Source: Escherichia phage Chuche. From it: a DNA stretch of 34,514 nt. The DNA is taken from sequence record PP925824.1. The stretch is one strand, 5' to 3'. The notes under the pieces are model-generated. The model saw only the letters and a program-made list of their open reading frames with translations, was not told the DNA's origin and made no database searches. The translations under genes were made by a program, and so were the position numbers. This document shows positions 9,763 through 10,080 of the stretch, one piece after another (the stretch's first letter is position 1; the number at the start of each line of letters is the position of its first letter).

Positions 9763-9779
9763 ACTCTACCTCTCGAAAA

Positions 9780-10080
9780 TGTGGTCACTGCGTGGACACG
9801 CACTGATATAAATCCTTTTATATCAACAAATTAAATCATCATTTTTTTCATCAACAAGGATTTTTAACCCTTTTTCAGTCTCTGACAATCTAAGGCTCCT
9901 TTATTAACAAACGCCCATTTGCAAACTGCTGTTTCATCTGAAAAAAACATTCATAATCATACAGATAACAACATAACCATTTAGACGGGCAATACTGAAA
10001 AATTGTTATTCAGTATCGCCCTTTAAGCCGTTTCAGGCTATATAAAATTAATCCCCCGTGGACAATGCGTGGACACTTAC
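9780..10080. other. Candidate attP region (AT-rich, flanked by cgtggaca repeats)
   Basis: Very AT-rich about 250 bp immediately 3' of int; repeats gtggacac at 9792-9799 and cgtggaca at 10057-10064 and 10069-10076 resemble arm-type integrase sites. Confidence 0.4.

Follow-up and report, generated by a model that had tools for sequence, protein, structure and literature searches.

An unsplit P2-type attachment site in the genome record of Escherichia phage Chuche, a Xuanwuvirus with pdxB as its integration target

Gene content and order of the Chuche genome

The window, by which we mean the whole 34,514-nucleotide stretch of Escherichia phage Chuche (PP925824.1) that was analysed, belongs to the genus Xuanwuvirus of the Peduoviridae and represents a P2-like coliphage of the P88/phiSM type. 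Its first 25 kb align with PhiR44_2, P884B11, Shae_phiSM (a Citrobacter phage) and P88 at about 95% identity over 73-84% of the length. Read from the left, the minus-strand genes U-T-E-FII-FI are followed by D-ogr, a hok/gef toxin gene, a com-like gene, a methyltransferase gene and the attachment region. To the right of this region lie int and C (minus strand), then cox through A, parM/parR and cargo genes, Q-P (minus strand) and, in the last part, O-N-M-L through H, a Macro-domain ORF and G. The gene complement is full and collinear with that of the relatives, and the length of 34.5 kb falls within their range of 31-37 kb.

The segment running from ogr (7976-8236) through hok/gef, the com-like gene (8794-9000), the DNA methyltransferase gene (8945-9736) and the attachment region into int is unbroken. 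The original prediction had described ogr, the cargo genes and int as contiguous, and this is borne out by the gene-by-gene map, in which no host DNA intervenes. The com-like gene encodes a zinc ribbon similar to Mu Com and overlaps the start of the gene for the N6/N4 DNA methyltransferase by 56 nt (8794-9736, plus strand), an arrangement resembling that of com-mom in Mu. Coordinates of the individual features are listed in Table 1.

Table 1. Features of the attachment region, the flanking genes, the probable cos region and the ends of the window.
Feature	Position	Strand	Remarks
Spacer with intrinsic terminator of the glycosyltransferase gene (31-765, minus strand)	1..30	-	Stem AGCAGGCGATTCGCCTGCT, bases 8-26
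hok/gef toxin gene	~8427-8567		Just upstream of the com-like gene
GC-rich hairpin AAGCCCGCAA-CA-TTGCGGGCTT	9741..9762	+	Directly after the methyltransferase stop; left bound of attP
P-arm Int arm-type sites, TGTGGTCA ctg CGTGGACA	9780..9798	+	8-mers in direct repeat, 11 bp apart; column-for-column alignment with the P arm annotated in P2, TGTGGTCAatgTGTGGACG
Predicted IHF site TATCAACAAATTA (consensus WATCAANNNNTTR)	9821..9833	+	Inside a block shared with the annotated P2 IHF site ATAAATCCTTTTAT
attP core/crossover region TTTTCATCAACAAGGATTTT	9845..9864		20 bp identical to attB; complement of pdxB codons 2-8
Phage-borne pdxB translation signals	9886..9901	-	AAGGAG 9901-9896, 7-nt spacer, TTG 9888-9886; then 7 codons reaching 9865, their frame continuing across the core into pdxB
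Palindrome, 16-nt arms, in the P' arm	9987..10021		Downstream of the int stop; identical in P884B11
int, P2-family tyrosine integrase, 334 aa	10048..11052	-	Pfam Int_N and Phage_integrase
P'-arm Int arm-type sites, CGTGGACA atg CGTGGACA	10057..10075	+	Within the final int codons; aligned with the P' arm of P2, TGTGGACActgTGTGGACA
C repressor	11149-11529	-	HTH_3
cox, excision directionality/switch protein	11585..11872	+	Pfam Phage_Cox, 1.2e-22
Probable cos region	19590..19650		Roughly 400 nt upstream of Q, the minus-strand portal gene at 20001-21047
TAA stop of the tail-fibre assembly gene (33936-34514)	34512..34514	+	Final base of the window

An AT-rich region with P2-type arm sites adjoins int

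Between the hairpin that follows the methyltransferase gene and the end of int, GC content drops to 0.34 (9763-10047) compared with 0.524 window-wide, the lowest value among 3423 sliding windows of 285 nt. The octamer CGTGGACA occurs three times in the whole window, each time on the plus strand and within 9791-10075. The composite pattern YGTGGWCA-N3-YGTGGACA is found exactly twice, at 9780-9798 and 10057-10075, and in none of 100 shuffled sequences. An AT-rich region with repeated cgtggaca motifs beside int had been predicted; both its coordinates and its motifs proved correct, and shuffling and sliding-window GC place them far above chance.

The composite matches correspond to a tandem pair of Int arm repeats on either side of a core, TGTGGTCActgCGTGGACA on the P side and CGTGGACAatgCGTGGACA on the P' side; the arm-repeat consensus published for the P2 group is tgTGGaCa (PMC3448106). 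Between the P arm and the core, the IHF consensus is matched once, its sole occurrence in the 34.5 kb of the window, and this site aligns with the IHF protein_bind feature of P2. The hairpin at the left bound was scored as a terminator on the minus strand only. The palindrome in the P' arm may, from its sequence and position, act as int terminator or as a protein-binding site.

The adjoining int gene is transcribed towards this region. Its product is 50% identical to P2 Int over the full length (336 aa, E 1e-123), and, as in P2, the P' arm repeats double as the terminal int codons.

Element order is the same in the P2 attP (AF063097) and in Chuche: terminator, two arm repeats, IHF site, core, and P' repeats located in the 3' end of int. 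The arm octamers and the IHF block are nearly identical in the two phages, and the Chuche hairpin holds the place taken in the P2 record by the ogr terminator, which precedes the P arm. Three differences stand out. The P2 record annotates Cox between the attP core and the Int P' arm, whereas Cox boxes were not recognized in Chuche, where the 190-bp P' arm (9866-10056) contains no convincing repeated box. The core of P2 measures 27 bp and targets locI, in contrast to the first pdxB codons in Chuche. Finally, core and P' sites are about 190 bp apart in Chuche and about 90 bp apart in P2, and it is in this additional stretch that Chuche holds the pdxB translation signals described below. Judged by its motifs and their order, 9780-10075 is an unsplit attP of the P2 type.

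The crossover core lies within the first codons of pdxB

The 20-mer TTTTCATCAACAAGGATTTT is present once each in the Chuche attP, in attB of E. coli K-12 and in both attL and attR of the E. coli lysogen NZ_CP074756. The pdxB codons of which it is the complement start immediately after the native GTG start. Among E. coli genomes, matches to the int side begin only at 9845 and extend rightwards, beside pdxB, with about 460 genomes carrying this junction; matches to the methylase side reach only as far as 9864, beside flk, and this junction is carried by 158 genomes. The window thus contains the left half of attR, a single core and the right half of attL, which by definition is an unsplit attP. 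The proposal that an uninterrupted attP next to int marks a non-integrated genome is upheld by this comparison of attP, attB, attL and attR in E. coli, and the alignment with the host that had been proposed for locating the crossover core places it at the 5' end of pdxB.

These data agree with published work on the relative phiSM, for which a 17-bp attP, ATCCTTGTTGATGAAAA, was reported in the 5' end of pdxB and Int-dependent recombination was demonstrated experimentally (PMC6456863). The 20-bp core measured here contains the published 17-mer, ATCCTTGTTGATGAAAA.

Replication origins, too, are typically AT-rich with short direct repeats, and the region could on those grounds be read as an origin or iteron cluster, or as a regulatory region of int, instead of an attachment site. 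We give this reading practically no credence: prophage/host boundaries fall exactly at 9845-9864 in hundreds of genomes, the repeats are P2 Int arm sites, and the P2 origin sits inside gene A.

With the region taken as attP, homology with P2 suggests that Int would use its N-terminal domain to bind the two tandem octamer pairs, one on each arm, that IHF would bend the P arm at its predicted site (9821-9833), and that strand exchange inside the 20-bp TTTTCATCAACAAGGATTTT would be carried out by the core-binding and catalytic domains of Int. The prophage would then come to lie between flk and pdxB, with pdxB losing its own promoter and GTG start, and excision would be directed by Cox.

Phage-borne signals would restore pdxB expression after integration

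On the P' side of the core, attP would supply AAGGAG-N7-TTG and seven in-frame codons, yielding a PdxB protein with a short new N-terminus. Consistently, PGAP calls a 385-aa PdxB from the phage TTG in lysogens. Rescue of pdxB by the same TTG and AAGGAG has been described for phiSM, whose lysogens are prototrophic and grow on minimal medium (PMC6456863).

Transcription of the rescued gene might start at a small phage promoter or reach it by read-through from the Pc-C-int operon, which runs in the same direction; the read-through, our own suggestion, may serve as an alternative transcript source. In the promoter proposed for phiSM (region 9886-9960, minus strand), the -10 box TAAAGG overlaps the AAGGAG Shine-Dalgarno sequence, so that a transcript starting downstream of the box would lack a ribosome-binding site.

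A native pdxB of another genus was considered as the source of the new PdxB leader, MSETEKGL, and rejected. The tblastn matches to residues 1-385 in Enterobacter and other genera are spurious extensions that run into non-coding DNA upstream of the native GTG start. None of the 80 loci matched by tblastn with the leader-bearing PdxB contains an integrase.

Integrated and non-integrated relatives

The closest described counterpart is phiSM (Shae_phiSM, OR565851; Magaziner et al. 2019), which has the same integrase lineage and the same pdxB target as Chuche. The P' half of its attP is 97.8% identical to that of Chuche, and AAGGAG-N7-TTG rescue is common to both. The phages differ in the reported core (20 bp measured in Chuche, 17 published for phiSM), in cargo (the glycosyltransferase gene, Macro-domain ORF and DUF3800 gene of Chuche set it apart from phiSM) and in the form deposited, phiSM being a prophage record and Chuche a closed one.

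Two P88-like relatives have been recorded in non-integrated form, each with an unbroken attP built as in Chuche, namely P884B11 (LR595891) and the plasmid record pZ1323PEC0009-2 (NZ_CP148288), with attP identities to Chuche of 94.6% and 96.5%, respectively. The latter, an E. coli 'plasmid' recorded as a circle of 34,461 bp, yields the attP at 96.5% identity once its ends are joined. The three records are opened at different points: P884B11, with one mismatch in its core, near Q at the probable cos, pZ1323PEC0009-2 at the att core, and Chuche in the G/U spacer.

Exact-pattern searches for the attP gave two matches in metagenome contigs, one non-integrated copy being a 13.7-kb contig; the attP-spanning pattern had no match in viral contigs or species-representative genomes.

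The Int protein of Chuche was also found, identical in sequence, in another assembly, where it is integrated beside a 385-aa pdxB and the surrounding 5.2 kb are 100% identical to the window. The same phage is therefore known in both topologies. The host flank of this prophage (pdxB-usg-truA) is 94.8% identical to E. coli and 89-92% identical to representatives of E. ruysiae, E. whittamii and E. albertii, and its natural host, on these values, is probably another Escherichia lineage.

The ends of the window abut

The window had been thought to begin and end inside phage genes. This was mistaken: position 34514 is the last base of the stop codon of the tail-fibre assembly gene, and positions 1-30 are an intergenic spacer with a hairpin, beyond which the minus-strand glycosyltransferase gene ends at base 31. 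The expectation that joining 34514 to 1 would create a convergent gene pair with a terminator did hold; the T-tract of the terminator crosses the boundary into 34513-34514.

When the last 3000 and first 3000 nt were joined, the product aligned as a single HSP, at 98.5-99.2% identity, to seven prophage-bearing contigs. In the best alignment, checked exactly for one contig, all 6000 of 6000 columns were free of gaps. The 80 nt spanning the junction were identical (80/80) in six independent contigs, and exact-protein look-ups placed the G and glycosyltransferase genes 30 nt apart in many bacterial and metagenome contigs. This junction was not found in complete E. coli genomes, and the junction-spanning exact pattern had no match in the viral contig collection. 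The window contains no terminal repeat or redundancy.

The ends are thus truly adjacent and the attP is intact, from which it follows that the window is one unit-length, non-integrated genome. We consider it highly probable that 9780-10075 is the intact attP of a P88/phiSM-like Xuanwuvirus and that the 34,514 bp represent one complete non-integrated copy, the circle having been opened between the tail-fibre assembly gene G and the glycosyltransferase moron. Chance would rarely place the cut right behind a stop codon, which suggests that the record was re-originated by software. The original prediction of a complete circular or permuted genome record, as opposed to an integrated prophage, is accordingly supported by the abutting ends and the intact attP; it is known from sequence alone, in which a physical circle, be it a replicative or excised form, a molecule with annealed cos ends or an episome, and one closed by an assembler or curator look the same.

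A similar product could arise without any free circular DNA, if the window had been sliced, at unit length, from a tandem double lysogen, or if a prophage had been excised and re-circularized computationally. Joined halves of attL and attR cannot be told from attP by sequence, integrated prophages identical or nearly identical to the window are common at pdxB, and the cut right after the stop codon resembles software re-origination. Nevertheless, the window is exactly one genome long and its ends meet with neither overlap nor gap, which would be rare for a random slice of a tandem array; it is devoid of host bases throughout; and independent non-integrated records of relatives exist. We therefore regard an origin by slicing or excision as unlikely, and the unit-length slice of a tandem lysogen, though formally possible, as improbable.

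A probable internal cos site and the meaning of circular permutation

Both ends of the linear P884B11 record map to 19601/19602 of the window, with no gap or overlap, and the prophage-form record of PhiR44_2 begins and ends at 9865/9864. In its gene order the window is therefore a circular permutation of both maps, and attP and the probable cos both lie within it. The P884B11 ends point to a probable internal cos site near 19601/19602, and its position relative to Q agrees with that in P2 and 186. Similarity to known cos sequences is weak: the P2 cos 19-mer has no match in the window with up to three mismatches, local alignment of the P2 cos junction with 19450-19800 was uninformative, and 186 cos shares about 9 of 10 bases with 19616-19625. 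The Chuche cos is consequently placed only by its position and by the P884B11 ends.

The packaging genes in near-identical contigs and in relatives are of the P2 type, comprising the gpM small terminase (PF05944), the gpP ATPase and the gpQ portal. Virion DNA would accordingly be expected to be cut at a fixed cos near 19601/19602. P2-type terminase genes and a probable internal cos together imply that the permutation belongs to the record and not to the virion. Of the predicted circular permutation, the part that stands is a property of how the circle was written down; permutation of the headful type in the virion is contradicted by the cos-type packaging genes.

The wording of the original prediction does permit virion DNA that is headful-packaged, truly permuted and terminally redundant, with window ends that reflect packaging, and these ends are indeed neither att nor cos. 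Such a reading is extremely unlikely in view of the P2-type gpM (PF05944), gpP and gpQ, the fixed 19-nt cohesive ends of P2 and 186, the mapping of the linear P884B11 ends to a single point about 400 nt from Q, and the window's lack of terminal redundancy.

Cargo genes and possible episomal maintenance

Directly after A, at 17084-18359, lie a gene for an actin-type ParM segregation protein (StbA_N, 5.9e-82; ParM C-terminal domain, 4.6e-68) and a ParR-like gene, a cassette kept in all P88-like relatives. One of these relatives, NZ_CP148288.1, is a circular 34.5-kb 'plasmid' in a complete E. coli assembly, and another strain carries a copy of 99.9% identity in its chromosome. Because of the ParM/ParR cassette in P88-like phages and the deposition of a relative as a circular plasmid, the non-integrated topology could be biological, with P88-like phages persisting as low-copy episomes (phage-plasmids) besides integrating at pdxB; we judge this very unlikely.

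The glycosyltransferase moron (31-765, minus strand; 244 aa, GC about 0.40) matches phrog_1962 (1.4e-84) and has no Pfam match. It occupies the G/U spacer, the counterpart of the Z/fun hotspot of P2. It is missing from all phage-database relatives, and copies of 83% identity are carried on E. coli plasmids. Between H and G, a 289-aa Macro-domain ORF (PF01661, 3.7e-18; 33036-33905, plus strand) overlaps the H stop; some near-identical prophages have it, and in others no such ORF is called. The DUF3800 protein (18591-19397, minus strand) matches the PADLOC candidate defence family PDC-M04A (2.6e-35). Its gene is adjoined by an unannotated 141-aa ORF (19473-19898, minus strand), and the pair lies beside the probable cos, in the counterpart of the P2 old/tin hotspot.

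Implications for Chuche and its relatives

The biology of this phage group is attractive, in that integration takes place at the 5' end of a gene for vitamin B6 biosynthesis, for which the phage brings replacement translation signals. Entry into pdxB and rescue of the gene were reported in 2019, for phiSM, so that the present data open up nothing new; an unsplit attP of this kind has already been described for close relatives and is an ordinary feature of a known phage group. The main worth of the present analysis lies in annotation: for Chuche, it fixes the anatomy of attP, with its arm sites, IHF site and 20-bp core, together with the integration target. Because the record comprises a whole genome, either the cos or the att convention can be adopted by rotating the gene order.
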